Source: a virus
Lineage: Duplodnaviria; Heunggongvirae; Uroviricota; Caudoviricetes
Reading direction: 5' to 3' (one strand)
Length of the DNA stretch: 28,061 nt
Virus record (IMG/VR): IMGVR_UViG_3300036956_000151
How positions within the stretch are numbered: the first letter of the stretch is position 1; each line of letters starts with the position of its first letter. The position numbers and the translations under genes are program-made. This document shows, piece after piece, positions 2,037-27,425 of this stretch. The notes below the pieces were generated by a model. The model worked only from the letters and a program-made list of their open reading frames with translations. It was not told the origin of the DNA and did not search any database.

Positions 2037-2055
2037 TGTAAGCACCTTGTAAGCG
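2037..2055 (+). promoter_or_regulatory. Two TGTAAGC heptamers (2037-2043, 2049-2055) at left end of element A; candidate integrase arm-type sites
   Basis: Same heptamer occurs three times at 12257-12287 at the opposite end, just upstream of the element A integrase start. Confidence 0.4.
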
Positions 2056-2530
2056 CCAGCAGAGGATGCGGGCCTGATGTCTGATGCGTACGTAACTTGT
2101 GTGCGTACCAGACTGCGTACTCGTGCATTGCACGGCCTCACATTGCGGTGCTGGCTATCGCCTTCCAAGCCCACGTTTAAAACGGAGCCTTCGACGGCGT
2201 GCTGAATACTCCGGTTTGAAATCGGAATATTCCCAGCTCCGGACAGCCCTGCGGCGACAGCCTCAAACCTTGACATCTTTGAACATCGGGCCTGACTCGC
2301 AGTAGAGGATGTCGCCGTTCCCGATACCCTGCAAAACCTACAAATCGTCGGCTTTGTGCAAGGGGCGCGAGGCATCCAACGCCATAAGGCACATATCGAA
2401 AGCTGCCTAGCAAGGGGGTGGCGTTTCGCCCACCCCTTTGATGCTCCCCGCAGGGTCGGGAAAACTACGCTATTTCCCGCAGTTTCAAGTTCGACCGTGG
2501 GCACCCTCGCCGGCCCCACCTCGCCCATCA

Positions 2531-2564
2531 ACCAAATTGGTAGATGGAGCAACCAATTTGGTTG
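2531..2564 (+). promoter_or_regulatory. Two adjacent palindromes ACCAAATTGGT and CAACCAATTTGGTTG; operator-like
   Basis: Perfect inverted repeats about 90-120 bp upstream of the Rha-like ORF. Confidence 0.35.
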
Positions 2565-2596
2565 CCACCAGCTTTACCGACCAGCACGGCGAAGGG

Positions 2597-2618
2597 GTGT
2601 CCTCAGTTTTGAGGATAC
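2597..2618 (+). promoter_or_regulatory. Palindrome GTGTCCTCA-GTTTT-GAGGATAC; operator-like, homologous to the site at 15443-15466 in element B
   Basis: Inverted repeat seen directly; 38 bp upstream of the ATG at 2657. Confidence 0.4.
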
Positions 2619-2656
2619 GTCGCCCCCGTCGCCAGCAGATACCCCATCAGCAAACC

Positions 2657-2803
2657 ATGAGCAGCCGCGAGATTGCGGAGCTAACGGGCAAGTGTCACGG
2701 CAACGTGAAGCGGACCATCGACACCTTGTCTGCCAAGGGAGTTATCCCTTTCCCTCATGCTGAGGAAAAGGCTACTGCGGGCCGTCCGCCGCTTGGCCTC
2801 TGA
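2657..2803 (+). CDS. Short ORF (48 aa) resembling only the N-terminal DNA-binding region of Rha/antirepressor-family phage proteins; possibly a truncated remnant
   Basis: MSSREIAELTGKCHGNVKRTIDTLSAKGVI matches the Rha-type N-terminal motif (SxEIAEL-GK-H-NV-R-I); no obvious SD. Confidence 0.4.
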   Translation: MSSREIAELTGKCHGNVKRTIDTLSAKGVIPFPHAEEKATAGRPPLGL

Positions 2804-2994
2804 GGGTGGCGTTTTTAAAACGCCCCCCCATGGAGAGCCAATATGGAGGCCATTTGCGGGAATGGCTCAGTTCTGAGCTATGAAGACCAGAGCCGGAATC
2901 CCTGTTCCACTCCCCATCCCGCCCAAGCCATGAATGCCGGCTGTCGCTGCAACCGTCGTGTGTAACTCTGCCCTGTAACCGCCAGCCAGAAGCG

Positions 2995-3016
2995 AAAAAC
3001 CCGGCGCTTGGCCGGG
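2995..3016 (-). terminator. Rho-independent terminator for the minus-strand gene 3054-3371 (CCCGGC-N5-GCCGGG followed by T5 on the minus strand)
   Basis: Hairpin plus A5 on the plus strand, about 40 bp past the stop codon. Confidence 0.5.
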
Positions 3017-3053
3017 TCTGTCCGTAGTGGGTACTAAACTTCAGGCGACATCT

Positions 3054-3371
3054 CTACCCCTCGGGGGAGCCAAAGTTGCGCAAAACCACACGGGCTAGGC
3101 TGCTGGTGCTGCAAAAACGGTCCTCGATGGCTGACATGACCGAGATGTTCAAGTCCTCGATTCTTGCCGACAGCCCGCGAAGCAATAGGGACTCGTCAAA
3201 GTTCTCCGATGTAAACGTTTCGCGCAGCATTCGGCACAGCCTGTCGATTTCCCAGGTTGCTTCCAGTGCTATGTCTCGGCGAGCCATGGACATAACTATA
3301 TCGTCGCCCTCTTCGCGGAGGTCTTGGTTGGTTCCGGTTTGGGGAAGGCTATCTAGTGTCGTTGCTTGCAT
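3054..3371 (-). CDS. Hypothetical acidic protein, 105 aa (MQATTLDSLPQTGTNQDLREEGDD...)
   Basis: ATG preceded by AAGGAG at 7 nt; terminator downstream; the plus-strand ORF over the same DNA is Ser-rich antisense-like. Confidence 0.5.
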   Translation of the reverse strand: MQATTLDSLPQTGTNQDLREEGDDIVMSMARRDIALEATWEIDRLCRMLRETFTSENFDESLLLRGLSARIEDLNISVMSAIEDRFCSTSSLARVVLRNFGSPEG

Positions 3372-3580
3372 GGTGGCTGCTCCTTGTGTGCGGTGATGTT
3401 CTCCGCAACCCCTTCCTACGGGGGCGGCGGAACCGTGCGGGGCTAGGAATACCGGACACAAGGAACCGGCCAGCCTCGCGGCTGCCCCACACGGCCCGCC
3501 ATTGAACAGGCGTCGCCATGCTTACCGACGTAAAAAAACCGCTTGCGCGGCCCTGTCGGCCTTGTGATTTCCGGGTTCCT
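3372..3580 (-). promoter_or_regulatory. Conserved ~200-bp structured non-coding leader (module 1), homologous to 15029-15235 in element B; possible promoter/5'-UTR or small RNA
   Basis: Alignable by eye with element B (shared GTTCTCCGC, GAACCGTGC, CCATGCTTACCGACGTAAAAAAACCGC-type blocks); conserved stems with compensatory changes; ends in SD plus ATG. Confidence 0.4.
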
Positions 3581-3760
3581 ACGCCCGCCCCTCTGTTTCG
3601 GGGGAAACTGAATCATGGGGCAGGCCGCTCGTTTCAGTCAATATAAAAATGATAATGAAATAGATTGGCTTGCCATAAATTTCGCTTGTACCATCGGCAT
3701 ACGACCACGGGCGTCTCGCAAGATGCAGACTGGCGCTCGCTCAAGACACAAGAGGCCCAC

Positions 3761-4735
3761 ATGAAGCGATTTGTTGTCATCCTCGGAGTATTGATGCTTG
3801 GCGGCTGCGCTACCGCCTATAAGCCTGAAGGTCACGGCGGAGGTTATACCGACGCTAGGTATGGCCCAAACCTCTTTGCAGTCACCGTGCGGGCCAACGG
3901 CTATACATCTTCTGACCGTGCAACAGAGCTGGCAATGCTACGAAGCGCGGAGCTTACATTGCAGAATGGATTCACCCATTTCGTCATCGCCGAGAGGGCT
4001 CAAGAGGCAAAGACCAGCACATTCAGCATGCCGACAACCACTTACACGACCGGAAATATCAACACGCAAGGAAATGCCGCTTACTTGAACGCCCAGACAA
4101 CAACTACAGGCGGGCAAACCTTCAATATTTCGAAGCCTCGCGTTTATTACAAAATAGAGTGTTACCGCAGTCAGCCCGACAGAGCCCTCGGGCTCGCTTA
4201 CGACGCCCGTGCAGTCTGCGAATCGCTTGGCAGCAAGTACGGCGTTGATTGCCAATCTCTCATCGCCACCAATCTCAAGCCTACCCATTCCAATGCCGGC
4301 GAAGTGCGTGCGGAGCTGTCCGCCGACCTGCCAGCCGGCTGGCAACGGCAAACTCTTTCTGACGAACTAGCGCAAAGAGGGGGAAGGCTGTTTGCCACTA
4401 ACAAGACCATAGACGCTGGGGCCTTGGTTTCGATGAGCAAACGGTCTGAAATTGTCGACACAGTCGTTTACGCCAAATCATTGAGAGCAAACCAAGCGAG
4501 CCTCATCGATAAAAGCGAGTGGTCTGAACTATCTGAAATCACCATAAACGGTCGTCGAGCATGGAAATTCTGGGTCACAGGCCTCTCAAAACGCGGCATG
4601 CAGGTTCAGTACCTAGGGACCGTTATTGAAGGCGAGTCACAGATGATTTACGTGAATACCTGGACTTCAAAGAAGAACTTTGACGATAACCGCACTGCTC
4701 TGGAGTCTCTCGCTGGCAGCTTTTCAGGCCTTTAG
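3761..4735 (+). CDS. Predicted lipoprotein, 324 aa, unknown function; low-GC cargo gene
   Basis: MKRFVVILGVLMLGGCATAYK (signal peptide with LGGC lipobox); AGAGG SD; GC visibly lower (~50%) than surroundings; Thr/Asn-rich linker segment. Confidence 0.8.
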   Translation: MKRFVVILGVLMLGGCATAYKPEGHGGGYTDARYGPNLFAVTVRANGYTSSDRATELAMLRSAELTLQNGFTHFVIAERAQEAKTSTFSMPTTTYTTGNINTQGNAAYLNAQTTTTGGQTFNISKPRVYYKIECYRSQPDRALGLAYDARAVCESLGSKYGVDCQSLIATNLKPTHSNAGEVRAELSADLPAGWQRQTLSDELAQRGGRLFATNKTIDAGALVSMSKRSEIVDTVVYAKSLRANQASLIDKSEWSELSEITINGRRAWKFWVTGLSKRGMQVQYLGTVIEGESQMIYVNTWTSKKNFDDNRTALESLAGSFSGL

Positions 4736-4768
4736 GCAGCGCAAGCGACGCCCGACCCCAAAGCGGCT

Positions 4769-4796
4769 ACGCGTGAAAGTGGCGTCTTTCACGCGT
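4769..4796. repeat. Palindromic hairpin repeat ACGCGTGAAAG-N6-CTTTCACGCGT; second copy at 5429-5456
   Basis: 11-bp perfect stems; two direct copies ~660 bp apart bracketing the repeat-rich block. Confidence 0.6.
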
Positions 4797-4907
4797 AACG
4801 ACGGGGCCAAGGGGAGGCCTCGTAGTCGGCTGGGTTGGCGATGAGCGGGGGAGAAGCAGGCTTGGTTTCCAGGGTCGGTTTCCAGCAGAACAGACCTTTT
4901 TCGCCTC

Positions 4908-4977
4908 CTGAAACCTGAACATCTTTCAGCATTCGCCGTCATGCCGTGCGCTTTTCTGTGCGCGTTGCCGGCTGCAT
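4908..4977. repeat. ~65-bp direct repeat (TGAACATCTTTCAGCAT...GTGCGCTTT...TTGCCGG), second copy 5148-5217; iteron-like
   Basis: Two copies ~240 bp apart read directly. Confidence 0.55.
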
Positions 4978-5260
4978 TACATCGAGGACCGGGCCAGCCA
5001 TGCGGTCGATGGCCACCTTGTGTTGTTCTTCAGGATTCAGGATTCAGCCGGGCCGGCACAGTGCTAGCACCGGGCTTGCCCGGTACTGGGGCTGCTTCGC
5101 ACTGCGGCCTGACGTGAAGACGCCCTCCCGCCCGGTCGTTTTGCTTCGTGAAAAGTGAACATCTTTCAGCATCGCATCGGGATGCTGTGCGCTTTCGCGT
5201 GCGGATTGCCGGAATCGGGGCAGGGCCAGTGCCGTCCATCTTCTGGACGCCATCGGTAGC

Positions 5261-5308
5261 GCCGATTTCAGCGCCGATTGACCGGCCGATTGACCGGCCG
5301 ATTGGCTG
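5261..5308. repeat. 12-bp tandem repeat GCCGATTGACCG, about four units, outer units degenerate
   Basis: GCCGATTTCAGC GCCGATTGACCG GCCGATTGACCG GCCGATTGGCTG. Confidence 0.6.
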
Positions 5309-5428
5309 CGCACCGAGCTGCGTACCACTGCCCTGCGTACCCGACTGCCGACGAAGGCCACGCCGCCAGCAGCGGCCACCAGTTCCAGAAAAGCGGCCTA
5401 CTCGCCAGCGTAGAGCTAGTAGCGGCCA

Positions 5429-5456
5429 CGCGTAAAAGTCGCGCCTTTCACGCGTG
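5429..5456. repeat. Second copy of the palindromic hairpin repeat (ACGCGTAAAAG-N6-CTTTCACGCGT)
   Basis: See 4769-4796. Confidence 0.6.
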
Positions 5457-5471
5457 ACGACGCGTGCGAGG

Positions 5472-5499
5472 GGAAGGAAGGAAGGAAGGAAGGAAGGAA
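5472..5499. repeat. (GGAA)7 tetranucleotide microsatellite
   Basis: Seven perfect GGAA units. Confidence 0.9.
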
Positions 5500-5771
5500 C
5501 TCTCTACGAGCGCGTTTGATGCGCCTGGCTACCTGCGCTTCCCTCAGACACGCAGTGCGTTCTTCGGTCTCCAGACGGGCGAGTGCACAGGCCATCCGGG
5601 CCAGGGTCAGAACTTACTGTTTCAGGCTGGCGGATTCTCGTTCCAGGGCGGCGAGTCGTTCAGCCTCCCCAAAACTCCCCAAAACCCCCCATTTATGGGT
5701 GCCGTCCTCCCCAAAACTCCCCACACCACCTTTAAGAGGTGGGGGGAAATGGGGACCATGTGGGGAATGGG

Positions 5772-7745
5772 TTACTTGAGCCACAGCCAGCCCTCCCGAA
5801 GGACGATGCAGCCACGGTTCACAAGTCCGGTAATGGCAAGCTGCGCCCTGTAACGTTTCTGGTCCGGGTCACATGCAAGGCGGGCGCGGGTCTTGTCGAT
5901 AGCCTCTTCCAGTTCAACGCAGGGCCGGCCAGGAGGTCCGCCAGCTTCCCCGAAGTGCCGCGACTCTTTCAGCAGGTCGCGCAGTGCGTCGAGGATGATT
6001 CGCTGATTCCCGCCGGTCGGCAGCTTCACCCGCCCCACGGCATCGGCGGCGCGCTCTTCGGGAACGACGCAGCAGCTTGTGATTTCGTCGCCGTCCTCGT
6101 CGGCCCCGATTTCCACCACTTCCAGCCGAAACGGTTTTCCCAGGTCGTCATTGCCATCCTTGCTCTTCGCGGCCGTCCATTCCCGGCGGTCGTCGGTGCG
6201 GCTCACCTCGATGGCGGCATCAAGCGCAGCGTGAAGGCTGGAATGCCCCCGCAGGCCCTTGGACGCATCCTTGCCGGTGTGATGCACCAGCAGCACCAGC
6301 CCGCCAAGCTCCGCCTGTAGCGCCTTCGTCGCGGCGATGATTTCGCCCATTGCGGCGGAGTCGTTCTCGTCGGCACCCGGCGCGGCGCGGTTCAGCGTGT
6401 CGAGGGCCAACACGCCACCCGAGTAACCGGCAGCGCGGGCGGCGCTCACAAGGTCGGCGCGGTCGGCAGCTTTGCGGATGTCGAGCGGTTGCAGCAGGAA
6501 GCGGAATGCGCCGGCAAGTGGGCCGTGTTTCTCTTGGTGCGCCTGGACGCGTTGCGAGATGCCGGCCTCACCCTCAAGGGCAACATACAGCACTGGGGCG
6601 GCCTTCACGCGGCACCCGAACCACGGCCGGCCAGCGGCGACAGCGGCGAGCATGTCGAGCGCCAGGAAGGATTTGCCGGACCCGCTTGGGCCATACAACG
6701 CGGCAATCCCTTCCTCCGGGAGCACACCACGCACCCGCCAGCGGACAGGGGGCAGCGCGGCCAGTTCAGACGGTGCCAGCAGCCGGAAGCGTTGCGAGTG
6801 CTTCTTCGGATTGGCCAGCAGTGCGGCCAGGGCGTCGAGGCCGTCCCGCTGGTGCATGTCGTTGGCGTCAAAGTTGGCGGGCGAGCCTTCCGGCATTTCC
6901 ACCCATGCGGCGGCGGTGTCCTTGGCGATGCGGGCGCAATGCGACTCCTTGCCGGCATCGGCCACCAACACCCGGCGGGCCAGCGGGTAGCGGTCGGCCA
7001 GCGCCTTGGATGCGGCTTCCATCCGGCCGGCACCGAAGCAGACCGCGGCCGGCGCGTTCGCGGCCTGGTGGCAGCTCCACGCCTGCCCGACGCCCTCGCA
7101 CAGGTAGAGCGTGACGCCTGCGCCCTGGTGCGGGATGCGCCCCACCACGAACAGGCCGTCCATCGGCAGGCCGGGGGCGTTCAGTTTCTTGCCATCGGCC
7201 GGCGGGATGAATTGCGCGCTCTTCAGGGTGCCGTCAATCGCGTAGCACGGCACCACGAGATAGCCGGCCACCGCCTCGCGGGCGATGGTCAGCGGGCCGC
7301 CATAGACGCGCAGGCCGGCGGGTAGGCCATGCTTGCGGGCAATGTAGCCGTGTTCCGCCGTCGCTGGTGCGCAGGATGCCCACAGGGCGGCCACGTCGAG
7401 CGGCGGAGCCTTGGACGGGGCTTCGTGCATCCGGCGCTCGGTCGTGCGTTGTGGGCGGTTCTGGTAAGTCTGGCGCGGTGCGTCGTCGCTCCATCCAGCG
7501 GCGCGGGCCAGTGCGAAGAGCGTACCGGCCTGGATGCCGCCATCCTCGCGGATGCTCCGCCAGACGGCGCGTGCGTCGGCCTCGTTGCGATAGTTGCCGG
7601 CTCCGGCGCTCCAGTCATGGAAGTCCTCGAAGTCGAGGCCGGCAGCCTTTGCAGCCATGCCAGCCCGGACCCATTCGGCGCGTTCGGCACCGGGGTCGAG
7701 GGCGTGCAAGGCAAAGCGGGCGCGGTCAAACTCGCGGGCATCCAT
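5772..7745 (-). CDS. Primase-helicase-type replication protein, 657 aa (PriCT-like N-terminus, Toprim-like centre, RecA-type ATPase C-terminus); ORF-track N-terminal 71 aa rejected
   Basis: MDAREFDRARFALHALDP...GLDFEDFHDWSAG; CEGVGQAW and VLVADAGKE; Walker A YGPSGSGKSFLALD and VLLVHHTGKD; ATG overlaps upstream stop (ATGA). Confidence 0.85.
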   Translation of the reverse strand: MDAREFDRARFALHALDPGAERAEWVRAGMAAKAAGLDFEDFHDWSAGAGNYRNEADARAVWRSIREDGGIQAGTLFALARAAGWSDDAPRQTYQNRPQRTTERRMHEAPSKAPPLDVAALWASCAPATAEHGYIARKHGLPAGLRVYGGPLTIAREAVAGYLVVPCYAIDGTLKSAQFIPPADGKKLNAPGLPMDGLFVVGRIPHQGAGVTLYLCEGVGQAWSCHQAANAPAAVCFGAGRMEAASKALADRYPLARRVLVADAGKESHCARIAKDTAAAWVEMPEGSPANFDANDMHQRDGLDALAALLANPKKHSQRFRLLAPSELAALPPVRWRVRGVLPEEGIAALYGPSGSGKSFLALDMLAAVAAGRPWFGCRVKAAPVLYVALEGEAGISQRVQAHQEKHGPLAGAFRFLLQPLDIRKAADRADLVSAARAAGYSGGVLALDTLNRAAPGADENDSAAMGEIIAATKALQAELGGLVLLVHHTGKDASKGLRGHSSLHAALDAAIEVSRTDDRREWTAAKSKDGNDDLGKPFRLEVVEIGADEDGDEITSCCVVPEERAADAVGRVKLPTGGNQRIILDALRDLLKESRHFGEAGGPPGRPCVELEEAIDKTRARLACDPDQKRYRAQLAITGLVNRGCIVLREGWLWLK

Positions 7746-8194
7746 CACATCACCCCCAGCACGCGCACGAAGGCCGCGACAACGGCGGCGGTCACGGATG
7801 CAGCGGCGAAGACAACGAGCGCGTCGAGGCTGATGGAACCGCGTTGCTGTCGTGCGTTCAGGGCGGCAGCGGTTGCCGGGTGCTGGCGGTCGAGCGCGTA
7901 CTCGGTGATTGTGCTGCGGCAATGGGGGCGGCGGATGTCGCGCTTGCAAAACGCCCACCCGCCATACTCCAGCGACTTAACTGACGCGGCCAGCCGCCAC
8001 CCGTCGCGGTAGTCGGCCTGGTTCTGCGGGCCGGTCAGCAGCGCCTGAAGGGCTTCGTAAGCCCGGGTGTTGTCGTTCGGCCAGCTTGCAGCTTCAACAG
8101 GCGGCAGCGTCTCGGGAAAGAGGTCTTGGGCGTTATAATGGCGAGGCTTGTCCAGGGCGCTCGACTTCTTTTTGGGGGTCGGGCGCTTTTTCAT
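7745..8194 (-). CDS. Hypothetical protein, 149 aa, basic N-terminus and hydrophobic C-terminal helix; coupled to primase gene
   Basis: ATGA overlaps at both ends. Confidence 0.6.
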   Translation of the reverse strand: MKKRPTPKKKSSALDKPRHYNAQDLFPETLPPVEAASWPNDNTRAYEALQALLTGPQNQADYRDGWRLAASVKSLEYGGWAFCKRDIRRPHCRSTITEYALDRQHPATAAALNARQQRGSISLDALVVFAAASVTAAVVAAFVRVLGVM

Positions 8195-8520
8195 GCCGCA
8201 CCAGCCTTTCGGGCCTTCGCTTCGACGAGCGCCATTTCATTGGCAGCGAACTCCTGACCTGCGCTGCCGGCGGCCTCAATGACTTCGACCGGCAGGCGGT
8301 ACTGCGCGAAGGCGCACGACTCGCCGAAGCGGTTGGGACGTTGGATAGTCTCCTTCGCGACGCCCCAGCCCCATTTGGTCAGGAGGAAAACGACGGCGGC
8401 AGTCCGGTAGATGCCCAGCGTCCTCCAGCTTGCAATGGGGCCAATGGCATTGCCAGCCAGAAACGCAGCGAGCAGGCGGGCGCTCTGGGTGCCGTGCTTG
8501 GGGTAGGTGCCGGCCATCAT
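8191..8520 (-). CDS. Hypothetical protein, 109 aa
   Basis: Start overlaps upstream stop (TAATG); stop overlaps downstream start (ATGA). Confidence 0.6.
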   Translation of the reverse strand: MMAGTYPKHGTQSARLLAAFLAGNAIGPIASWRTLGIYRTAAVVFLLTKWGWGVAKETIQRPNRFGESCAFAQYRLPVEVIEAAGSAGQEFAANEMALVEAKARKAGAA

Positions 8521-8750
8521 TACGCCACCTCGCCAGAGGTAAGGGCCTCAACGGCCGCGGCGTCCCACAGCAAGAAGCGGTTGCGGCACTTGACCGGGCG
8601 CAGGCCGAAGTAATGCCCGTCACGGCACAGGGCGGCGCGCAAGGTCTGCGGGCGCACCTTCAGGACGGCGGCGGCCTCAATGGTGGAGTAGTTGCGCAGG
8701 ATGGACGCGATGTCCGTGCGCTTGGTGGTGGGTGTGTTTTGGTGTTGCAT
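8520..8750 (-). CDS. Small HTH DNA-binding protein, 76 aa, AlpA/excisionase-like; first gene of the replication operon
   Basis: STIEAAAVLKVRPQTLRAALCRDGHYFGLRPVKCRNRFLLWDAAAVEAL; AGGAGA SD; same motif pattern as the element B gene at 23916-24098. Confidence 0.7.
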   Translation of the reverse strand: MQHQNTPTTKRTDIASILRNYSTIEAAAVLKVRPQTLRAALCRDGHYFGLRPVKCRNRFLLWDAAAVEALTSGEVA

Positions 8751-8843
8751 TCGCTGGTTCTCCTGCTCGGAAAACCACCGTTGAGAGTCGCCGGATGCAA
8801 CTCAATCAACGCTGGCGAACGCAATGTGTTGCGCCGAAGTCTA

Positions 8844-8859
8844 TTAACAGCCGGCTGTT
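8844..8859. promoter_or_regulatory. Perfect 16-bp palindrome TAACAGCCGGCTGTTA in the promoter region of the element A replication operon
   Basis: Lies between the stop at 8863 and the HTH gene start at 8750. Confidence 0.35.
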
Positions 8860-8862
8860 ATG

Positions 8863-9456
8863 TTACCCGCCATTTCCAAGATGCTGATTTTTAAGGGTCT
8901 TTAGGCTGTTTAGAAATTTGCGCTCTTCGCTACCCCCCTCGGTTCTAAGTCCGTGCTCGTCAGTGAATACAACATACCCCGCGTCGCGCTGCACGACTCC
9001 ACGGCTCTCCAGTTTGTCCAGCATATCCGATGCAGTCAGGAGTCTGTTCTTGTCCCATATGGCCTTTGCCTCTAGTCGCCAGCGGATAGTAGCGGGCCGT
9101 CCTCCTTTGCGTACGACACGCTTCTGCGACGCGGACCTAGCCTGCTGTGCTCTTGCTGCTGCGGCGTAATGCTGCATCATCGGAGACAAGGGACCGACAG
9201 CAAGAATGGCAGACCTTGCAGCCGCAACGGACGCGGCGTGCGCAGCATCAACCATTGGCTGCATCCACTGACGCGTTTTTTCAGGCCACGTCTCCCTTAG
9301 AAGTCCAAGAGGCGGCTCCTGCAAAGGTAGGGTCAGCGAGCTTCTCAGCACCGACTCGAACACGGCGAGCTGGATTTCCTCGGCCCCGCGCCTGAAGTCA
9401 GCCGCGAATGATGCGGACTGACCTCCCATCCCCTGTTTTTTCAAATGCTTTGTCAT
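8863..9456 (-). CDS. Hypothetical protein, 197 aa; contains a GGRPA motif shared with the syntenic 252-aa protein of element B
   Basis: AAGGAG SD 6 nt upstream; directly preceded by conserved hairpin module 2. Confidence 0.6.
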   Translation of the reverse strand: MTKHLKKQGMGGQSASFAADFRRGAEEIQLAVFESVLRSSLTLPLQEPPLGLLRETWPEKTRQWMQPMVDAAHAASVAAARSAILAVGPLSPMMQHYAAAARAQQARSASQKRVVRKGGRPATIRWRLEAKAIWDKNRLLTASDMLDKLESRGVVQRDAGYVVFTDEHGLRTEGGSEERKFLNSLKTLKNQHLGNGG

Positions 9457-9477
9457 CGCGCTCCTTCAAGCGCCTTC

Positions 9478-9552
9478 AAAAGAGGCACCGCGCCAGGCGG
9501 GTGAAGGTTCCCGCTTTTCGGTTGGCCGACCTAGGCGCGGTGGTGGTACTCG
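9478..9552. terminator. Conserved nested-hairpin element (module 2): outer stem CACCGCGCC/GGCGCGGTG enclosing inner hairpin GCGGG-N8-CCCGC plus T4; terminator-like in both orientations; homologous copy at 25028-25104
   Basis: Near-identical flanks in both elements; inner stem differs by compensatory changes (GCGGG/CCCGC versus CGGGG/CCCCG). Confidence 0.45.
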
Positions 9553-9553
9553 G

Positions 9554-9934
9554 TCAGGCGGCAATCGCCTCATTCAAGGGACACGGCTGAATCAGCACGT
9601 CAGCCGGGAGGCCGAGGCCAGAAGACAGGCGGCGAATCATCGTCACCGACAGCGGGCGCGTCCGGTTCATGATGTCGGCCACCCTCCCCCGCGGGCCGAT
9701 GTAAGGCTCCAAGTCCTTGCGCGTCAATCCGCGGGACTCCATGACGTACTCAAGGAAGGCCACCGGGTCCGGGGCTTTAATCAGGAAGTGCGCCTTTTCG
9801 TAGGCTTCCACCAGCATGGCGAGCACCTCCAGGCGGTCGGCCTCGGGGCTTCCATCAGGGGCATCCCACAGGCGTTCGATATCGGCCAGGGCTTCGTTGT
9901 GCTCGGCTTCGGTTCGGATGGGCTTCAGTTCCAT
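9554..9934 (-). CDS. higA: HigA-family antitoxin (HTH), 126 aa
   Basis: Immediately downstream of the HigB-type toxin gene; AGGAG SD; C-terminal HTH-like segment LTRKDLEPYIGPRGRVADIMNRTRPLSVTMIRRL. Confidence 0.8.
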   Translation of the reverse strand: MELKPIRTEAEHNEALADIERLWDAPDGSPEADRLEVLAMLVEAYEKAHFLIKAPDPVAFLEYVMESRGLTRKDLEPYIGPRGRVADIMNRTRPLSVTMIRRLSSGLGLPADVLIQPCPLNEAIAA

Positions 9935-9942
9935 GGCGGCTC

Positions 9943-10236
9943 CTAGATGGTTTCAGCGTCTATCCGGTCGTACTCGGCATGAGTGCCCACGAAACGGATG
10001 AACATCATGGTGGAGGTGTAACGCACAGCCGCCACCAACCGGTAGTCATTGCCCTTGATGTTGAACACCACGCGGTTGTTCGCCAGAAAGCTGGCGTTCC
10101 GGTGCGCGGCCTTGATGTCGGCCGGGGTTTGCCAGGTGGCCCGGCTTGCCTCGGCGTACCAACCACGCAAAGGGGTTTCGGCTTGCGGATGCTTCTCCCA
10201 AAACTCGCGCAGTGCTCGCAGTGCAATGATGTGCAT
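9943..10236 (-). CDS. higB: HigB-family type II toxin (mRNA interferase), 97 aa
   Basis: MHIIALRALREFWEKHP...NNRVVFNIKGNDYRLVAAVRY...IRFVGTHAEYDRIDAETI; toxin-first order. Confidence 0.85.
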   Translation of the reverse strand: MHIIALRALREFWEKHPQAETPLRGWYAEASRATWQTPADIKAAHRNASFLANNRVVFNIKGNDYRLVAAVRYTSTMMFIRFVGTHAEYDRIDAETI

Positions 10237-10319
10237 GACTCAATCTAGCATGTTACCGTTTTGGTAGCAAACACTCAGGCTTTCACCACCCGCAGCCCGG
10301 CCGCCTGCTCTTCGCCCGG

Positions 10320-10604
10320 TCAGGCGGCGATGCGTGCCACGGGTGCCCGGTCCTTGGCGCGCTCGCCGGCTGTCCAGAGGTCGCGCTGCGTTTGCAGGCG
10401 CAGCCAGTAGCCGGGCGAGGTGCCTAGCGCCTCGTGCAGGCGCAGGTCCATATCGGCGGTGACGGCGGCATGCCCGTGCAGGATGCGGGACAACATCACC
10501 CGGCTGATGCCCACATGGGCGGCAAAGGCGGTCACGCTCATATCGAGGTCTTCCAGCCAGCCGGCCAGGATTTCGCCAGGGGTTGAAGGGTCGTGCATGT
10601 CCAT
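10320..10604 (-). CDS. HigA-like antitoxin (XRE-type HTH), 94 aa
   Basis: PGEILAGWLEDLDMSVTAFAAHVGISRVMLSRILHG...ITADMDLRLHEALGTSPGYWLRLQTQRDL; follows the killer-protein toxin gene. Confidence 0.8.
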   Translation of the reverse strand: MDMHDPSTPGEILAGWLEDLDMSVTAFAAHVGISRVMLSRILHGHAAVTADMDLRLHEALGTSPGYWLRLQTQRDLWTAGERAKDRAPVARIAA

Positions 10605-10615
10605 GATGTCGGGCC

Positions 10616-10894
10616 TCAGTGGTAATCCAGATAGTCCAGCAGTTCCACGTTTCCGCCATCGAAGCGGAACACAAGCCGCCAGTTGGCTTGCACCGTCATG
10701 GCGAGGAAGCCGGCGCGGTCGCCGGACAGGCCATGCAGGCGCCAGGACGGGCGGGCGAGGTCTTCCGGGCCGGCGGCGGCGTTCAGGGCGGTCAGCATTT
10801 CCCGTAGGCGCTTGGCGTGAATCGGCTGAATGCCGGCCTGCTTGCCGGTCAGGAAGAAGGCTTCAAGCCCCTTGTGTCGGAACGATAGAATCAT
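10616..10894 (-). CDS. RelE/ParE-superfamily toxin of the HigB killer-protein type, 92 aa
   Basis: MILSFRHKGLEAFFLTGKQAGIQPIHAKRLREMLTALNAA...LLDYLDYH. Confidence 0.85.
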   Translation of the reverse strand: MILSFRHKGLEAFFLTGKQAGIQPIHAKRLREMLTALNAAAGPEDLARPSWRLHGLSGDRAGFLAMTVQANWRLVFRFDGGNVELLDYLDYH

Positions 10895-10898
10895 AGTC

Positions 10899-10917
10899 TG
10901 TAAATCATAGCTTTACA
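10899..10917. promoter_or_regulatory. Inverted repeat TGTAAA-N7-TTTACA upstream of the toxin gene; likely TA operator/promoter
   Basis: Between toxin start (10894) and integrase stop (10926). Confidence 0.4.
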
Positions 10918-10925
10918 ATGTCCGC

Positions 10926-12242
10926 TCAGGTCACAACCCGCAACCCAGGCGCCTGCCCCTCGTCCGGCTGCTCGATGCCGGCCTGCTCCAGAATCCAGCC
11001 CTCTATCTTGATGTGCCACAGGGTCAGCAGGTCGAGCGGCCGGCGGCGATAGTGCTTCTCGGCCAAGGCGCTGGGCTTGTGCCCCTGAATCTGCGCCACC
11101 ACGCCGACGGGCACCTCGCACCACTCCGCCAGGGTGCCGAAGGAGCGGCGCAGGTCATGCAGCGAGAATGGCGGCAGGCCGGCGGCTTCCATCGCTTTGC
11201 GCAGGGGTTTGAGGACTTCCACGATACGGCCATCCGCGGCCGCAGGGCTTGAGAACACCCACTCATTCCGGCGCGGCAGAGAGGCCAGCAGCGAGGCGAC
11301 GAAGGGCGTCAGCGGGATGATGCGGCCCTCTTCCTCCACCTTGTCGGCGATGTGCAGGGACTTCCATTGAAAATCCACGTCAGCCCATTTCAGGCCGGCC
11401 AGTTCCTCGCGCCTCGCGCCGGTCAGGAGCAAGGTTTGCAGGTAGGCGGCGTGCACCGGGTTCCCCAGCTTGCGGACATGCTCGAACCACAGCGGCAATT
11501 GTTCGCGGCGCAGGCTGTCGCCTTTGGTCTTCACCGCCTGCACTTGGTCCCGCACTTCGCTGGTGCGGCAGGCATCCGCACGAACGAGGCCGGCATACTC
11601 CGGGCGCTCGGCACACCAGCCAAGGAAGGCGCGCACGAGGCGGAATATCTTTGCGGCCTGCGTCGCCCCGCGGGCGTTGTTGTCCTGCATCCATGCCGTG
11701 ATGCGTGCCGGGGTCAGGTCCAATAGGCGCACATGCAGCAGCGGATGTACCATGCCGGGCAAAGTGTATTCCCCCTGCCCAGCCTTGCGCCCTCGCGTGA
11801 TGCGCTCGCCGCCGGGCTTTATGGCCTGTGCATGGTCGCGCTGTGAGGACTCGCCCCACTTGTGCGAGCGGGCCAGAACATAGGCGGCCCATGCCTCGCC
11901 AACGGTCACTTCCTGCCGTGCGGACTCTTCCCGCTTGGCCTCGATGGCGGCGCGCTTGTCGGCCTTCTCTTGGCGCGGGTCGATGCCTTGGTCAATCAGG
12001 GTTTGCAGGCGGCGGGCTTCGGCGCGGGCTGCGTCAATGCCCCACGCGCGCACGTCGCCAATCGTGATGCGAAGAGCCTTGCCGTTCAGGCGGCTTTGGA
12101 AGATGAACCCGCGCGCCTCGCTGCCGGGTGTGGCACGCACTGCGAGGCCGGGCGCTTCCGTGTCCCACAGGAAGGCTTGAGCGGTGCCGGTCGGGCATTC
12201 AAATTCGCGGATGCGGCCGGCGGTCAGCTTGTTGCGTGCCAT
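10926..12242 (-). CDS. int: Tyrosine recombinase, P4-type integrase (element A); ATG at 12242 preferred over the ORF-track start at 12248
   Basis: ~438 aa; catalytic-domain blocks LTGARREELAGL, HDLRRSFGT, HKPSALAEKHYRRR; GGAGAA SD; adjacent to att copy 2. Confidence 0.9.
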   Translation of the reverse strand: MARNKLTAGRIREFECPTGTAQAFLWDTEAPGLAVRATPGSEARGFIFQSRLNGKALRITIGDVRAWGIDAARAEARRLQTLIDQGIDPRQEKADKRAAIEAKREESARQEVTVGEAWAAYVLARSHKWGESSQRDHAQAIKPGGERITRGRKAGQGEYTLPGMVHPLLHVRLLDLTPARITAWMQDNNARGATQAAKIFRLVRAFLGWCAERPEYAGLVRADACRTSEVRDQVQAVKTKGDSLRREQLPLWFEHVRKLGNPVHAAYLQTLLLTGARREELAGLKWADVDFQWKSLHIADKVEEEGRIIPLTPFVASLLASLPRRNEWVFSSPAAADGRIVEVLKPLRKAMEAAGLPPFSLHDLRRSFGTLAEWCEVPVGVVAQIQGHKPSALAEKHYRRRPLDLLTLWHIKIEGWILEQAGIEQPDEGQAPGLRVVT

Positions 12243-12256
12243 GTTCAAGTTCTCCG

Positions 12257-12287
12257 TGTAAGCGGCTCATGTAAGCAGCTTGTAAGC
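12257..12287. promoter_or_regulatory. Three TGTAAGC heptamers (12257, 12270, 12281) upstream of the element A integrase; candidate arm-type sites
   Basis: Direct repeats read from sequence; same heptamer at the left end (2037-2055). Confidence 0.4.
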
Positions 12288-12406
12288 GGATTCTAGAACA
12301 CGCTTCAATTTCCATCAACGTCAAAAACGGAATGAATGCTTTATTTTCAATGCCTTGCTGTTTTTATGAAACGCTATTCAATGTCAAAAAACCCCGTAAC
12401 CATTCA

Positions 12407-12502: not shown

Positions 12503-12510
12503 CGGCGCCG

Positions 12511-25001: not shown

Positions 25002-25027
25002 TCTCGCGCTCCATCTGCGCACCCATC

Positions 25028-25104
25028 GAAAAAGGCACCGCGCCAGCGGGGCGATGGAATCCCCGTTTTCGGTTGGCCGACCTAGGCGCGGTGGTGGTGC
25101 TCGG
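25028..25104. terminator. Conserved nested-hairpin element (module 2), element B copy
   Basis: Outer stem CACCGCGCC/GGCGCGGTG, inner CGGGG-N9-CCCCG plus T4. Confidence 0.45.
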
Positions 25105-25359
25105 TCAGCTACGGTTCCGACGTGCAGCCTCGATGCCGGCCCGCAGTTCTTCGTCCGTGGCCGGGCGGTCGTCCTCGTCCTTACCGTCCCATACAAAGTG
25201 CTTTTCCGGAGAGATATTGCGGACCGCCGTAGCCAGTTCCTTACGCTGCTGTTCAGCCAGGGCAGAGAGCTCGTTGGCCTTCCGAAATGCCGGGTCGCCC
25301 TTGCTGGCTTCCTCGGCATAAGCGCGAGGGTCGAAGGAGCCGGGTTTGTAGTCGCTCAT
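25105..25359 (-). CDS. Hypothetical protein, 84 aa, charged; third gene coupled to the HigBA pair
   Basis: Strong SD GGAGAGGAG; begins about 20 nt after the antitoxin stop. Confidence 0.6.
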   Translation of the reverse strand: MSDYKPGSFDPRAYAEEASKGDPAFRKANELSALAEQQRKELATAVRNISPEKHFVWDGKDEDDRPATDEELRAGIEAARRNRS

Positions 25360-25381
25360 GGTTCGCTCCTCTCCTGCTCGG

Positions 25382-25690
25382 TCAGGCAGCTTCCGCGTGC
25401 ATTGGCCGAATCTCTCGTGCCACCTTCTCGCCTATTGCCGCCTCGGCCTGCTTCAGGTCAAAGGCTGTTTGCAGATTCATCCAGAATTGCGGCGTGGTGT
25501 CGAAGTAGCGGGCGAGGCGCAGGGCAGTGTCAGGCGTCACCGCCCGGCGCTCGCGCACGATGTCGTTAATGCGCGGGGCAGGAACGTGCAAATCCATTGC
25601 CAGGGCGTTGGCGCTGAGTCCAAGCGGCAGCAGGTATTCTTCCCGCAGAATCTCGCCCGGATGAATGGGGCGCATATTGTTCGTAGCCAT
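25382..25690 (-). CDS. higA: HigA-family antitoxin (XRE-type HTH), 102 aa
   Basis: IHPGEILREEYLLPLGLSANALAMDLHVPAPRINDIVRERRAVTPDTALRLARYF; GAGGGA SD. Confidence 0.8.
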   Translation of the reverse strand: MATNNMRPIHPGEILREEYLLPLGLSANALAMDLHVPAPRINDIVRERRAVTPDTALRLARYFDTTPQFWMNLQTAFDLKQAEAAIGEKVAREIRPMHAEAA

Positions 25691-25701
25691 GTTCAAATCC
25701 C

Positions 25702-25983
25702 TCAGTGGTAATCCACGATTTCGACGCCCTCCGGCCCCGTAGCCGTCCAAACGAAGCACACGCGCCACTGGTCATTGATGCGGATGCTGTGCTGTCCGGC
25801 TCGGTTCCCACTGAGCGCTTCGAGACGATTGCCCGGGGGCGAGCGCAAGTCCTTCAGCTCTTCGGCAGCATCAAGCATTTGCAGTTTTCGCTCTGCGACA
25901 GCTTCAATGTTCCGGAATCGCTTCGGGTGCAGCCCTTCGTAAAGGGCTTCGGTGTCTTCGCACCGAAATGAACGGATCGTCAT
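25702..25983 (-). CDS. higB: HigB killer-protein toxin (RelE/ParE superfamily), 93 aa
   Basis: MTIRSFRCEDTEALYEG...PPGNRLEALSGNRAGQHSIRINDQWRVCFVWTATGPEGVEIVDYH. Confidence 0.85.
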   Translation of the reverse strand: MTIRSFRCEDTEALYEGLHPKRFRNIEAVAERKLQMLDAAEELKDLRSPPGNRLEALSGNRAGQHSIRINDQWRVCFVWTATGPEGVEIVDYH

Positions 25984-26007
25984 GGTCTCAGAATAGAACG
26001 CGTTACG

Positions 26008-26026
26008 TTTAACGTCAATCGTTAAA
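26008..26026. promoter_or_regulatory. Inverted repeat TTTAACG-N5-CGTTAAA upstream of the toxin gene; likely TA operator
   Basis: Between toxin start (25983) and integrase stop (26041); same placement as in element A. Confidence 0.35.
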
Positions 26027-26040
26027 GTTGTAAATGGAGG

Positions 26041-27369
26041 TTACTTGACGGCCCTGAGGACTGTCGCGGCCCCCTCTGTCGGCTGCTCGATGCCGGCCTG
26101 TTCCAGAATCCACGCCTCAATCTTGATGTGCCACATACGTAGCAGGTCGAGGGGCCGGCGGCGGTAGTGCTTTTCAGCCAGCGCAGACGGCTTGTGCCCT
26201 TGAATCTGCGCCACCACGCCCACCGGGCATTCCACCCATTCGGACAGGGTGCCGAAGGAGCGGCGCAAGTCATGCAGTGAGAACGGCGGCAGGCCGGCGG
26301 CTTCCATCGCGTTCTTGTGGGGCTTGAGCGGCTCCTGGAGGCGGCCAGATGCCGCGGAGGGGCTGGAGAACACCCACTCATTGCGGCGCGGCAGGGCTGC
26401 CAGCAAGGCCGCAACATAGGGCGTCAGCGGGATGATGCGCTGCCCTTCCACTTTGTCCCGGATGGTCAGGGACTTCCATTGAAAATCGATGCAATCCCAC
26501 GTCAGGCCGGCGAGCTCTTCGCGGCGGGCTCCGGTAAGCAGCAGGGTTTGCAGGTAGGCCACGTGCACCGGATTGCCCAGCTTCCTGACGTGCTCGAACC
26601 ACAGCGGCAACTGCTCCCGCTGCAGGCTGTCGCCCTTGGCTCTGGCCGCCTGCACCTGGTCCCGCACTTCGCTGGTACGGCAGGCGTCGGCCCGGACAAG
26701 GCCGGCATACTCGGGCCGCTCGGCACACCAGCCAAGGAAGGCCCGCACCAAGCGGAAGTTCTTCGCTGCTTCGGTGGCCCCCCGGACGTTGTTCGCCTGC
26801 ATCCAGGCCGTTATGCACGCCGGCGTCAGGTCGATCAGGCAGACCGCCAGCAGCGGATGAACCATGCCCTGCAATGAGAACTCGCCCTGCCCCTTCTTGC
26901 GGCCTCGCGTGATGCGCTCGCCACCGGGCTTGATGGCCTTCTCGTGGTCCCGCTTGGACGATTCGCCCCACTTGTGGGAGCGGGCGGCAACGTAGGCGGC
27001 CCACGCCTCGCCAACGGTCACGGACTGGCGGCGCTGCTCTTCCTGCCCTGCCACCACTGCGGCCTTCTTGGCCTCCACTGCGGCCAGCTTGTCGGCTTTC
27101 TCCTGCCGGGGATCGGTGCCCTGGTCGACAACGGTTTGCAACCGGCGAGCTTCGGCGCGGGCATCGTCCAGGTTCCACGCCCGCACGTCGCCGATGGTTA
27201 CGCGGATTGTTTGCCGGTTTAGCTTGGCCTCGAAGATGAACGACTTCGCGCCCGTGGTCGCACGCACAGCGAGGCGCGGCGCGTCGGTGTCCCAGAGGAA
27301 GGATTGCTTGGCGTCGGCGGGGCAGGAGAAGCGGCGGATTCGGTCGGGCGTGAGGCGTTCGCGTTGCAT
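26041..27369 (-). CDS. int: Tyrosine recombinase, P4-type integrase (element B), 442 aa
   Basis: Collinear with the element A integrase with long identical stretches (HDLRRSFGT, VGVVAQIQGHKPSALAEKHYRRRPLDLL); GGAG SD; adjacent to att copy 3. Confidence 0.9.
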   Translation of the reverse strand: MQRERLTPDRIRRFSCPADAKQSFLWDTDAPRLAVRATTGAKSFIFEAKLNRQTIRVTIGDVRAWNLDDARAEARRLQTVVDQGTDPRQEKADKLAAVEAKKAAVVAGQEEQRRQSVTVGEAWAAYVAARSHKWGESSKRDHEKAIKPGGERITRGRKKGQGEFSLQGMVHPLLAVCLIDLTPACITAWMQANNVRGATEAAKNFRLVRAFLGWCAERPEYAGLVRADACRTSEVRDQVQAARAKGDSLQREQLPLWFEHVRKLGNPVHVAYLQTLLLTGARREELAGLTWDCIDFQWKSLTIRDKVEGQRIIPLTPYVAALLAALPRRNEWVFSSPSAASGRLQEPLKPHKNAMEAAGLPPFSLHDLRRSFGTLSEWVECPVGVVAQIQGHKPSALAEKHYRRRPLDLLRMWHIKIEAWILEQAGIEQPTEGAATVLRAVK

Positions 27370-27388
27370 GGTGACGGGCTCCGAATTT

Positions 27389-27425
27389 GGCTACACAGAC
27401 AGCCCATGTAGCCACGGTGTAGCCA
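27389..27425. promoter_or_regulatory. Three GTAGCCA-type repeats (one inverted) upstream of the element B integrase; candidate arm-type sites
   Basis: GGCTACAC (inverted), TGTAGCCA, TGTAGCCA; matches the left-end pair at 12511-12529. Confidence 0.4.

Follow-up and report, generated by a model that had tools for sequence, protein, structure and literature searches.

Phages lambda and HK022 share their arm specificity and differ in core specificity. For ICEMlSymR7A, the attP used by the integrase IntS measures 283 bp and carries five arm-type repeats, all of which are required, and IntS represses its own gene (PMC11963761). Among P2-like and 186-like integrases, the arm consensus sequences tgTGGaCa and tgccGCCActt go with two types of N-domain; candidate discriminating residues have been proposed, and the two classes follow phage phylogeny (PMC3448106). 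Arm-type sites are an already known kind of feature, and their basic identification at the locus described here is ordinary; we present them for two elements stacked at one tRNA gene, together with the way in which the sites and the integrases vary with each other in related loci.

The window, i.e. the whole stretch of 28,061 nucleotides that was analysed (viral record IMGVR_UViG_3300036956_000151), contains a tRNA(CAT) gene adjoining rpoD, and this gene hosts two elements in tandem, A (10,474 bp) and B (15,150 bp). The layout is defined by the following features:

15-1892: rpoD, directly 5' of the tRNA gene
1902-1978, + strand: intact tRNA gene (ARAGORN and sequence), anticodon CAT at 1936-1938; the integration target
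1933-2028, + strand: att1, running from the anticodon loop through the tRNA 3' half and an IHF-like site to a terminator hairpin
1983-1995, + strand: match to the IHF consensus, TATCAAGCACTTA, lying between core and P' sites; it recurs at 12457-12469
8520-8750, - strand: candidate excisionase of A, 76 aa, weak HTH_17 match below the Pfam cut-off
12407-12509, + strand: att2, partial tRNA 3' half; right junction of A and left junction of B
13299-13640, - strand: candidate excisionase of B, weak Phage_AlpA match below the Pfam cut-off
27555-27659, + strand: att3, partial tRNA 3' half; right junction of B, with no arm sites beyond it

Direct repeats of the tRNA 3' segment, starting at 1933, 12407 and 27555/27557, enclose the two elements; insertion is into the 3' part of the gene, which is restored, as in tRNA-integrating islands. 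The left junction of A, att1, is 96 bp long and identical to att2, and the repeated anticodon-loop sequence ACTCATAA has its first base at 1933 in A and at 12407 in B. The IHF consensus has two matches (1983 and 12457) against 0.22 expected, and a related sequence, CTAAGTGCTTGA, adjoins the tRNA 3' end in many related loci. Element A, which starts at 1933, has a primase-helicase replicon (PriCT_2 and AAA_25), and element B, which starts at 12407, carries replication-initiator and helicase genes and a few phage-like ones; each of them encodes several helix-turn-helix and replication proteins. The closest phage integrases are ~25% identical to those of the elements. No helper-exploitation genes (capsid-size or late-gene control, a trait of P4-like satellites) were recognised in the elements, and no conjugation genes were detected among the screened ORFs of these 10-15 kb elements. 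Binding sites for a directionality factor (RDF) were not found at the locus, the candidate RDFs being the sub-threshold HTH_17 and AlpA matches.

A first, sequence-only reading of the window had proposed that each element carries its own short repeat at both ends, placed like arm-type integrase binding sites. The sets of repeats are:

2037-2054, + strand: putative P' arm of A, two direct TGTAAGC copies (2037-2043 and 2048-2054), 11 bp apart
12257-12287, + strand: putative P arm of A, three direct TGTAAGC copies (starting at 12257, 12270 and 12281)
12511-12529, + strand: putative P' arm of B, two direct TGTAGCCA copies (12511-12518 and 12522-12529)
27388-27425, + strand: putative P arm of B, an inverted site (27388-27395, - strand) and direct TGTAGCCA copies at 27407 and 27418

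An exact search of the window bears out the two copies of TGTAAGC at 2037-2055 and the three at 12257-12287; the sixth match is a stray copy on the minus strand at 3952, and six matches compare with 1.29 expected, a count reached in 1 of 100 shuffles. For TGTAGCCA, the five matches all lie at the ends of element B, against 0.36 expected, and none of 100 shuffles reached five. Here the earlier claim holds for the pair at 12511-12529, while the three copies it placed at 27389-27425 are in fact two direct copies and an inverted one, the inversion having gone unmentioned. The inverted copy and the last direct copy are contained in the two arms of a perfect 14-bp inverted repeat, GAATTTGGCTACAC / GTGTAGCCAAATTC (27383-27396 and 27417-27430). 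In A as in B, the copies of the two-copy set begin at 104 and 115 bp, counted from the first base of ACTCATAA, and the three-copy sets lie on the other side of the next att copy, at 126-150 bp in A and 139-169 bp in B, with neighbouring direct copies 11-13 bp apart. These matching distances from the crossover in A and B, in a lambda-like attP layout, support the proposed arm-type placement. The sites of the two elements differ at two bases, TGTA-A-G-C in A versus TGTA-G-C-C in B.

Next to the three-copy sets lie the integrase genes and their predicted promoters:

10926-12242, - strand: integrase A, 438 aa; motif-tracking residues Q49 (12096-12098) and R51 (12090-12092)
11943-12242, - strand: predicted arm-binding N-domain of integrase A, roughly residues 1-100
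12290-12318, - strand: predicted int A promoter, by consensus match (-35 TTGATG, 17-bp spacer, -10 TAGAAT)
26041-27369, - strand: integrase B, 442 aa; motif-tracking residues E47 (27229-27231) and K49 (27223-27225)
27427-27456, - strand: predicted int B promoter, by consensus match (-35 TAGACA, 18-bp spacer, -10 TAGAAT)

The P arm of A sits between the -10 box and the ribosome-binding site of int, its first site beginning 3 bp downstream of the predicted -10 box, and the predicted int B promoter abuts the first arm site of B. The two integrases are 80% identical overall, 55% over residues 1-60 and 84% over alignment columns 121-445, so that the N-terminal ~60 residues are, as had been suggested, their most divergent part. 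Both match Pfam Arm-DNA-bind_3 (PF13356; 43.6 and 43.0 bits, cut-off 27) and Phage_integrase (52.1 and 51.4 bits, cut-off 27.1), and TGARREEL, HDLRR, GHK and KHY motifs were found by eye in both. An AlphaFold model of the N-domain (mean pLDDT 79) has strands at residues 23-27, 33-37, 44-52 and 55-63, and among PDB entries it matches 3rmp, 3jtz and 3ju0 best, with probability 1.0, target TM-scores of 0.77-0.87 and rmsd values of 1.5-2.2 A; by sequence alone the similarity to PDB entries is weak (E = 0.025 to 0.9). Assignment as an arm-binding domain is based on the Pfam match together with the fold similarity of the predicted structure. Within the best overall explanation of the locus, it is highly likely that both integrases are of the heterobivalent tyrosine type, in the IntSXT / P4-like subgroup.

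This architecture is shared by about 160 relatives (80 genomic loci and 85 from metagenomes or viruses), which come from Zoogloea, Accumulibacter, Thauera, Methyloversatilis, Burkholderiales and other taxa. Nearly all of them have 2-4 direct copies of NNNTACA (TGTANNN on the opposite strand) roughly 35-100 bp upstream of int, with a spacing of 11 bp in 134/148 cases; an additional inverted copy is present in 58 of the 125 loci of a non-redundant subset, and two direct copies with one inverted, as in the P arm of B, is the commonest layout. The motifs vary between relatives, and the pairing of one motif with both ends of an element, which the sequence-only reading had suggested looking for in homologous elements, recurs in 20/21 loci in which both ends were found. 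[quoted passage not shown] As for the concern that the motifs might be equally dense elsewhere, the counts in the window exceed those in shuffles, and of 131 NNNTACA pairs spaced 10-13 bp in 1.33 Mb of related loci, 113 are at the two expected arm positions, several of the remaining 18 being arm sites of a neighbouring element. The relatives use tRNAs with at least 10 different anticodons and always end at the anticodon loop.

Which motif an element carries can be read from its integrase. Residue 49 (Q or E) predicts base 3 of the motif (T or C) in 156/157 loci: in the first set, E goes with C in 53/53 loci and Q with T in 25/26, and in the held-out set (78/78 correct) the figures are 45/45 and 33/33. 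When all 438 integrase positions are compared as predictors, residue 49 comes first for base 3 (1 error in 125) and residue 51 (R or K) for base 2 (C or G; 4 errors), and in close pairs of N-domains that differ only in K versus R, the motif differs in G versus C. The integrases of the window differ in the same way, Q49/R51 in IntA versus E47/K49 in IntB, two residues of one β-strand, and Gln-A, Glu-C, Arg-G and Lys-G are classical residue-base pairings. The exceptions are L022 (Q with CGGTACA), L162 (E and R with GGCTACA) and L024 (K with TCTTACA), and mixed GGTTACA and GCTTACA sites are frequent with K-type N-domains. Physical linkage contributes to this co-inheritance, since the int-proximal sites lie less than 100 bp from the N-domain codons, and the distal ones ~350 bp in the circular form; it does not explain the concerted identity of the 4-5 copies in each element, nor the switches of a single residue with a single base.

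The motif does not follow the catalytic domain. The catalytic-domain tree requires 26 changes of motif and the N-domain tree 3, compared with ~39 for shuffled labels, and the DNA of L003 and L006 is 98-100% identical over int nucleotides 390-1260, 55-80% identical in the N-domain and about 50% identical upstream. As judged from these comparisons, N-domain and arm sites have been reshuffled together against the catalytic domain, with the motif following the N-domain. The arm and core/catalytic modules thus recombine independently, so that elements targeting one tRNA carry many arm types: at least five NNNTACA classes occur among elements at one tRNA(CAT) target, where a non-TACA arm type, TCGTCCCCCA, is also present, and the family as a whole has at least nine NNNTACA classes.

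We believe, with a probability of roughly 0.85, that the repeats are arm-type sites for the N-domain of each element's own integrase, in elements stacked at tRNA(CAT); they very probably serve as docking sites for the front domain of that integrase. In the excised circle, the sites would form an attP of about 270 bp, with two P' sites, the terminator hairpin, the IHF-like site, the tRNA 3' half, the anticodon-loop crossover, an AT-rich P arm, three P sites and int, in this order. The four-stranded N-domain of each integrase would bind its own sites, presumably by direct contacts to the bases, while the remaining protein binds and cuts the core, and the bridging of arm and core would build the complexes for integration and excision. 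Autorepression of int by the bound integrase is also expected, because only 2-3 bp separate the -10 box from the first of the three int-proximal sites. We infer further that the differing arm specificities may confine IntA to att1 x att2 and IntB to recombining att2 with att3.

Other readings of the repeats account for less of the evidence. That they are operators solely for autoregulation of int, bound by the N-domain and dispensable for recombination, would fit the int-proximal sites, which cover the likely transcription start; the regulation of KplE1 IntS has reportedly been treated in a published paper (PMC2951348), and autorepression via arm sites is documented for ICEMlSymR7A IntS (PMC11963761). 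However, integration of that element requires all five sites (PMC11963761), and in A and B, as in 20/21 relatives, two more copies lie at the far end of the element, remote from any int promoter when integrated, an arrangement to be expected only of an attP that has arms on either side; we thus consider operators alone very unlikely. It is highly improbable, too, that the repeats bind another protein of the element, i.e. an excisionase of the AlpA/HTH_17 type, a HigA antitoxin or an iteron-using replication initiator, even though both elements encode several helix-turn-helix and replication proteins and short direct repeats at ~11-bp spacing resemble iterons. Homologues of HTH_17, HigA and primase proteins (76-98% identity) occur across motif classes: for the HTH_17 protein of A, proteins of 76-77% identity occur in GGCTACA as well as GCTTACA elements, HigA1 has counterparts of 98% identity in GGCTACA elements, and the HigA of B has counterparts of 89-97% identity in GCTTACA elements. 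None of the related loci encodes a homologue of the AlpA-like protein of B, although all share the architecture, and of all integrase positions it is the two N-domain residues that best predict the motif. Replication iterons were rejected, as the sites flank the att core and not a replication gene, and the primase, replication and helix-turn-helix homologues span motif classes. Finally, motifs of 7-8 bp are short enough for chance clusters or functionless leftovers of local duplication to be considered, but this explanation is effectively refuted by the shuffles, by the identical placement in both elements and their relatives, and by the positions of the spaced pairs.

A separate question is what the difference between the arms of A and B is for. 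It might act as a compatibility label, whereby elements stacked at the same tRNA excise singly, each integrase reading only its own arms; such labels would arise easily, either by swapping of a contiguous cassette (P' sites, core, P sites and N-domain) or by point changes under a two-residue code in which, within TGTA-N-N-C, residue 49 Q/E may read A/G and residue 51 R/K may read G/C. We offer this as a tentative proposal. The chances are about even that the difference has no insulating role and is a neutral by-product of frequent swapping of N-domain and arm sites as a cassette, with neighbours differing as random pairs do. Cassette exchange is indeed frequent, random pairs in the family differ in motif class in 70% of cases, and six mixed junctions out of six would have p of about 0.12; moreover, K-type N-domains tolerate G and C at base 2, so that orthogonality between the classes is not strict. 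Different motifs meet at six independent neighbour junctions, while five or six junctions (L096, L137, L147, L161, L165 and perhaps L160) pair identical ones and may be same-type tandems, as neutrality would allow. On the other hand, these same-motif junctions all stem from contigs of metagenomes and viromes, in which excised circles (attP) should occur, and could be such circles instead; among genome-derived loci, 3/3 neighbour junctions, as well as the window, are mixed and none is of the same type, and the many arm classes at one tRNA(CAT), including TCGTCCCCCA, fit diversifying selection.

The relatives make up a large, previously uncharacterised set of P4-like integrases in which two residues reveal the arm specificity, so that mutagenesis can test it directly. 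This readable specificity and the independent recombination of the two modules are relevant to the question of how multiple islands build up at a single tRNA hotspot and do not merge, and could supply sets of integrases that do not cross-react for genome engineering.

Compared with known systems, A and B resemble ICEMlSymR7A in having a tRNA-targeting tyrosine integrase, an int gene adjoining att, five sites (here spanning ~270 bp) and, corresponding to the autorepressing IntS (PMC11963761), sites over the predicted int promoter. They differ from it in the motif (TGKTGGTATC there, unrelated to NNNTACA), in their size of 10-15 kb, in the location of int at the end far from the intact tRNA gene, and in being known from sequence alone. 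The arm-binding domains of the HPI, HAI7 and other P4-like integrases (3jtz, 3ju0, 3rmp; PF13356 / DUF4102), compared by fold and Pfam family, share the fold of four strands and a helix with only 20-25% sequence identity to the A/B N-domain. Lambda Int and its attP likewise have arms on both sides of the core, five arm sites (P1, P2 and P'1-3 in lambda) and an N-terminal β-sheet arm-binding domain, with an IHF-like site between core and P' sites here; in contrast, lambda Int belongs to another integrase subgroup, and the crossover of A and B lies in a tRNA anticodon loop. In their specificities A and B are the mirror of lambda and HK022, with the core shared and the arms different. The P2-like and 186-like integrases are a precedent for covariation of arm site and N-domain, to which the present family adds at least nine classes, a two-residue/two-base rule that applies to held-out loci, and repeated reshuffling.

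The window opens with rpoD and an intact tRNA gene whose 3' half, from the anticodon loop (ACTCATAA) and together with a downstream hairpin, is present in three direct copies starting at 1933, 12407 and 27557. These copies (att1, att2 and att3) are the boundaries of two insertions, elements A and B, each with its integrase gene (int) at the end distal to the intact tRNA gene:

15-1892, rpoD, followed by the intact tRNA gene
1902-1978, intact tRNA gene, anticodon CAT
1933-12406, element A, 10,474 bp
10926-12242, minus strand, IntA, integrase of A, 438 aa
12407-27556, element B, 15,150 bp
26041-27369, minus strand, IntB, integrase of B, 442 aa

Sequence differences among the three att copies fit a crossover at the anticodon loop, and suggest that B was the earlier insertion, A entering the restored tRNA gene afterwards. 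A encodes two HigB/HTH toxin-antitoxin pairs, a small HTH_17-like protein, a winged-helix protein and a PriCT_2 + AAA_25 primase-helicase; B encodes one HigB/HTH pair, a replication initiator, a DnaB-like helicase, a KilA-N protein, a weakly AlpA-like protein and a few phage-like proteins. The closest integrases among deposited phage genomes are only ~25% identical. The toxin-antitoxin pairs lie directly past int (9554-10894 in A, 25382-25983 in B), and their antitoxins are 89-100% identical to antitoxins in elements of other arm classes, so that the toxin-antitoxin module travels independently of the arm one. Just beyond these genes, where the surrounding DNA of A and B is dissimilar, a 49-nt stretch (TCCCGCTTTTCGGTTGGCCGACCTAGGCGCGGTGGTGGTACTCGGTCAG) is 94% identical between the elements beside a 46-nt stretch with 74% identity (9473-9557 / 25023-25108), and a 34-nt hairpin-containing repeat, GGTGTCCTCAGTTTTGAGGAYAC, is common to A (2585-2618) and B (15432-15465) at 82% identity. 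The att3 flank outside B (27600-27659) retains the hairpin and a ATCAAGCACTTA segment, which is P'-arm sequence in A and B as in many relatives, with no arm sites after it; an older element may have left it behind, or it may be the native tRNA terminator, copied by the elements.

Each element carries its own short repeat at both ends, in a two-site arm (P') and a three-site arm by int (P), and strong comparative evidence supports the view that these repeats act as arm-type sites linked to the integrase N-domain. TGTAAGC is found 6 times in the window against 1.29 expected, five of them at A's ends, while TGTAGCCA is found 5 times against 0.36 expected, every copy at B's ends. The positions proposed by a sequence-only reading were recovered with one correction: TGTAGCCA does occur three times near IntB, but not all in direct orientation, as the first copy is inverted (27388-27395, minus strand) and, paired with the last direct one, makes up a perfect 14-bp inverted repeat. 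Site positions match exactly between A and B, the P' pairs beginning 104 and 115 bp past the first att-repeat base in both; the P triplets precede the next att repeat by 126-150 bp (A) and 139-169 bp (B). Joined as an excised circle, each five-site set spans ~270 bp around the core. Another heptamer, TGCGTAC, has three copies just inside A's P' sites (2085-2120) and two at 5319-5340; its total of 7 in the window compares with 1.6 expected and is reached in 0 of 100 shuffles, and it could be a site for another element protein.

Both integrases match two Pfam domains above threshold, N-terminal Arm-DNA-bind_3 and C-terminal Phage_integrase; an NCBIfam search returned generic Xer-type matches only, all sub-threshold. 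As had been noticed from the sequence, they are very similar and diverge most in their N-terminal ~60 residues: identity is 80% overall, falling to 55% over residues 1-60 and reaching 84% in the alignment from column 121 onwards. Against PDB sequences the N-domain had no more than marginal matches, whether searched as a single sequence or as a profile (E = 0.89 and 0.025), so a fold comparison was needed. The AlphaFold model of IntA residues 1-110 (mean pLDDT 79) folds into four strands and a helix, and the only solved structures that match it strongly are 3rmp, 3jtz and 3ju0 (probability 1.0, target TM-score 0.77-0.87), all of them arm-type binding domains, from P4-like, HPI and HAI7 integrases.

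Scans with both integrases yielded relatives in 80 genome or MAG loci, 80 metagenome loci and 6 viral contigs, with 31 to 98% identity to the query; the genomes include Zoogloea, Accumulibacter, Thauera, Methyloversatilis, Thiobacillus and many Burkholderiales. The comparison with homologous elements bore out the arm-type reading, as in almost all loci the region ~35-100 bp upstream of the int start contains 2-4 direct copies of a 7-mer that ends in TACA. Among 125 non-redundant loci, 134 of 148 spacings between copies are 11 bp, and the commonest layouts are two direct copies plus one inverted (56 loci, like B), two direct (46) and three direct (17, like A). Where both att copies could be located, 20 of 21 loci have two direct copies of the same motif at the far end, ~64 and 75 bp from the tRNA 3' end, and none of the 21 has a different motif there. 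Across 1.33 Mb of related loci, 113 of 131 spaced NNNTACA pairs (N, any base; read in int orientation) lie at the two expected arm positions.

The motif classes among the 125 loci are GGCTACA (60), GCTTACA (21), GGTTACA (20), GCCTACA (16) and several rare ones. With the target tRNA typed by T-loop pattern in 95 loci (~58% of those screened), elements at tRNA(CAT) show five NNNTACA classes and those at tRNA(GTT) also five; arm class is independent of target tRNA. A few relatives keep the layout and have unrelated repeats together with changed strand residues: L089 (FVFAGK) carries two copies of GGGAGCAAT and an inverted third, and L092 and L094 (FLFKGA), which target the same tRNA(CAT), carry TCGTCCCCCA twice. 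In two independent assemblies (L170, L171) the integrase is identical to IntA over 438 residues, and the arm sites and first 57 bp upstream are identical to the window (12243-12460); over the rest of the P arm identity drops to roughly 70% (by eye), and the att fragment comes from a tRNA-Thr(TGT), not tRNA(CAT). The same protein thus appears to serve two tRNA targets, whose anticodon stems have GCG / TAAT-GC features in common.

An N-domain alignment sorted by motif class suggested a simple rule involving the strand F-x-F-[E/Q]-x-[K/R], with residues 49 and 51 (IntA numbering) read from MAFFT alignment columns in two sets of 79 loci each, the later set serving as hold-out. Glutamate at residue 49 goes with C at base 3 of the motif (53/53 in the first set, 45/45 in the hold-out), and glutamine with T (25/26 and 33/33). 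Lysine at residue 51 goes with G at base 2 in 50 loci of the first set (5 mixed, 1 C) and 42 of the hold-out (4 mixed); arginine goes with C in 16 (3 others A or mixed) and 25 (6 mixed). K-type proteins often combine a GGTTACA site with a GCTTACA site, and the exceptions to the rule are L022, L162 and L024. When all 438 integrase positions were scanned without preselection, residue 49 came out on top for base 3, carrying 94% of the information with 1 error in 125, and residue 51 for base 2 (79%, 4 errors). Close N-domain pairs differing only in K vs R differ in the base as well, G vs C, and A (Q49, R51, TGTAAGC) and B (E47, K49, TGTAGCC) differ exactly at the rule's two residues and two bases. 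In terms of the window's plus strand, the pairings are Q-A, E-(G:C), R-G and K-(C:G), all classical amino acid-base preferences. Being two apart on the model's strand 44-52, the two residues should face the same side.

Linkage helps joint inheritance, since the int-proximal sites adjoin the N-domain codons, and ~350 bp separates these codons from the distal sites once the element is circular; the sameness of all 4-5 copies per element and the single-residue, single-base switches are beyond what linkage explains. Base 3 requires 26 changes on the catalytic-domain tree and 3 on the N-domain tree, and motif class 40 and 19; with shuffled labels, base 3 requires ~39 and motif class ~60. The motif thus follows the N-domain, and the contrast between the trees indicates that N-domain and sites have repeatedly been reshuffled against the rest of the integrase. 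A sharp mosaic is seen between L003 (GCTTACA) and L006 (GGCTACA), whose DNA is 98-100% identical over int nucleotides 390-1260, 55-80% over the N-domain and ~50% upstream; L081/L085 and L110/L124 behave likewise. We also considered other DNA-binding proteins of the elements as partners of the motif and rejected them, because elements of other classes encode close homologues of A's HTH_17 protein and HigA1, of B's HigA and of the primase. The evidence points to separate evolution of the arm and core/catalytic modules.

A would excise by att1 (A's P' sites) x att2 (A's P sites), and B by att2 (B's P' sites) x att3 (B's P sites). Excision of the two as one composite would bring A's P' arm together with B's P arm, so that different arm specificities ought to favour separate excision, and it is plausible that they insulate the tandem neighbours. 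Junctions in the family, in which neighbours were detected only via their P' sites, comprise six independent mixed-motif cases (the window, L053, L074, L077, L098 and L152) and five or six same-motif cases (L096, L137, L147, L161, L165 and perhaps L160). These same-motif cases could be either attP circles or tandems of one type; no contig-end overlaps or second att copies were found at them. As 70% of random family pairs differ in motif, six of six mixed has a probability of ~0.12. No second family integrase was found by tblastn as tandem partner in the 10-kb flanks of fetched loci. In L142 (300-620) a second integrase (39% identical, strand residues FVYRYR), which has the family's site layout with the unrelated repeat GYGCCCTT in four copies, was rejected as a partner on account of its different tRNA copy and repeat. 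Look-ups of the exact IntA and IntB proteins led back to the tandem junction seen in the window (L167, JGI sample 3300036971) and to the window's right flank (L175-L177), with no solo or excised configuration among contigs encoding exactly either protein, and the predicted attP junctions of A and B had no match in IMG/VR. The window's two elements lie, sequence identical, on two contigs of that sample, Ga0377231_0001438 and _0001172 (L167, L175). The closest genomic integrases, at 77-79% identity, are in Zoogloea MAGs, which makes a Zoogloea-like member of the Rhodocyclaceae the probable host.

An IHF-consensus match, TATCAAGCACTTA, lies directly past the tRNA 3' end, in the core/P' interval, at 1983-1995 and 12457-12469, and a CTAAGTGCTTGA-like sequence occupies that spot in the distal ends of L004, L007, L016, L031, L046 and others, although the tRNAs differ. 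The predicted int promoters of A and B end 2-3 bp before the first arm site, so bound integrase should shut off int. Upstream of the int -10 box (minus strand; 12296-12345, 27433-27465) are two or three -35-like words with ~10-11 bp spacing, and most related loci also have several; the word is RTTGA in most elements including A, and ATAGAC in B, L092 and L094. They may represent stacked promoters, or regulator or excisionase sites.

Arm-type sites of an integrase are a kind already known, of which this is a well-resolved case; it contributes a simple, testable specificity rule and evidence for separate evolution of the two modules. In the 283-bp attP of ICEMlSymR7A five sites are all required, and IntS represses its own gene (PMC11963761), by analogy with which we would expect bound integrase to repress int in A and B. 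The repeats are very probably arm-type sites of heterobivalent integrases, in an arrangement like that of lambda and ICEMlSymR7A.
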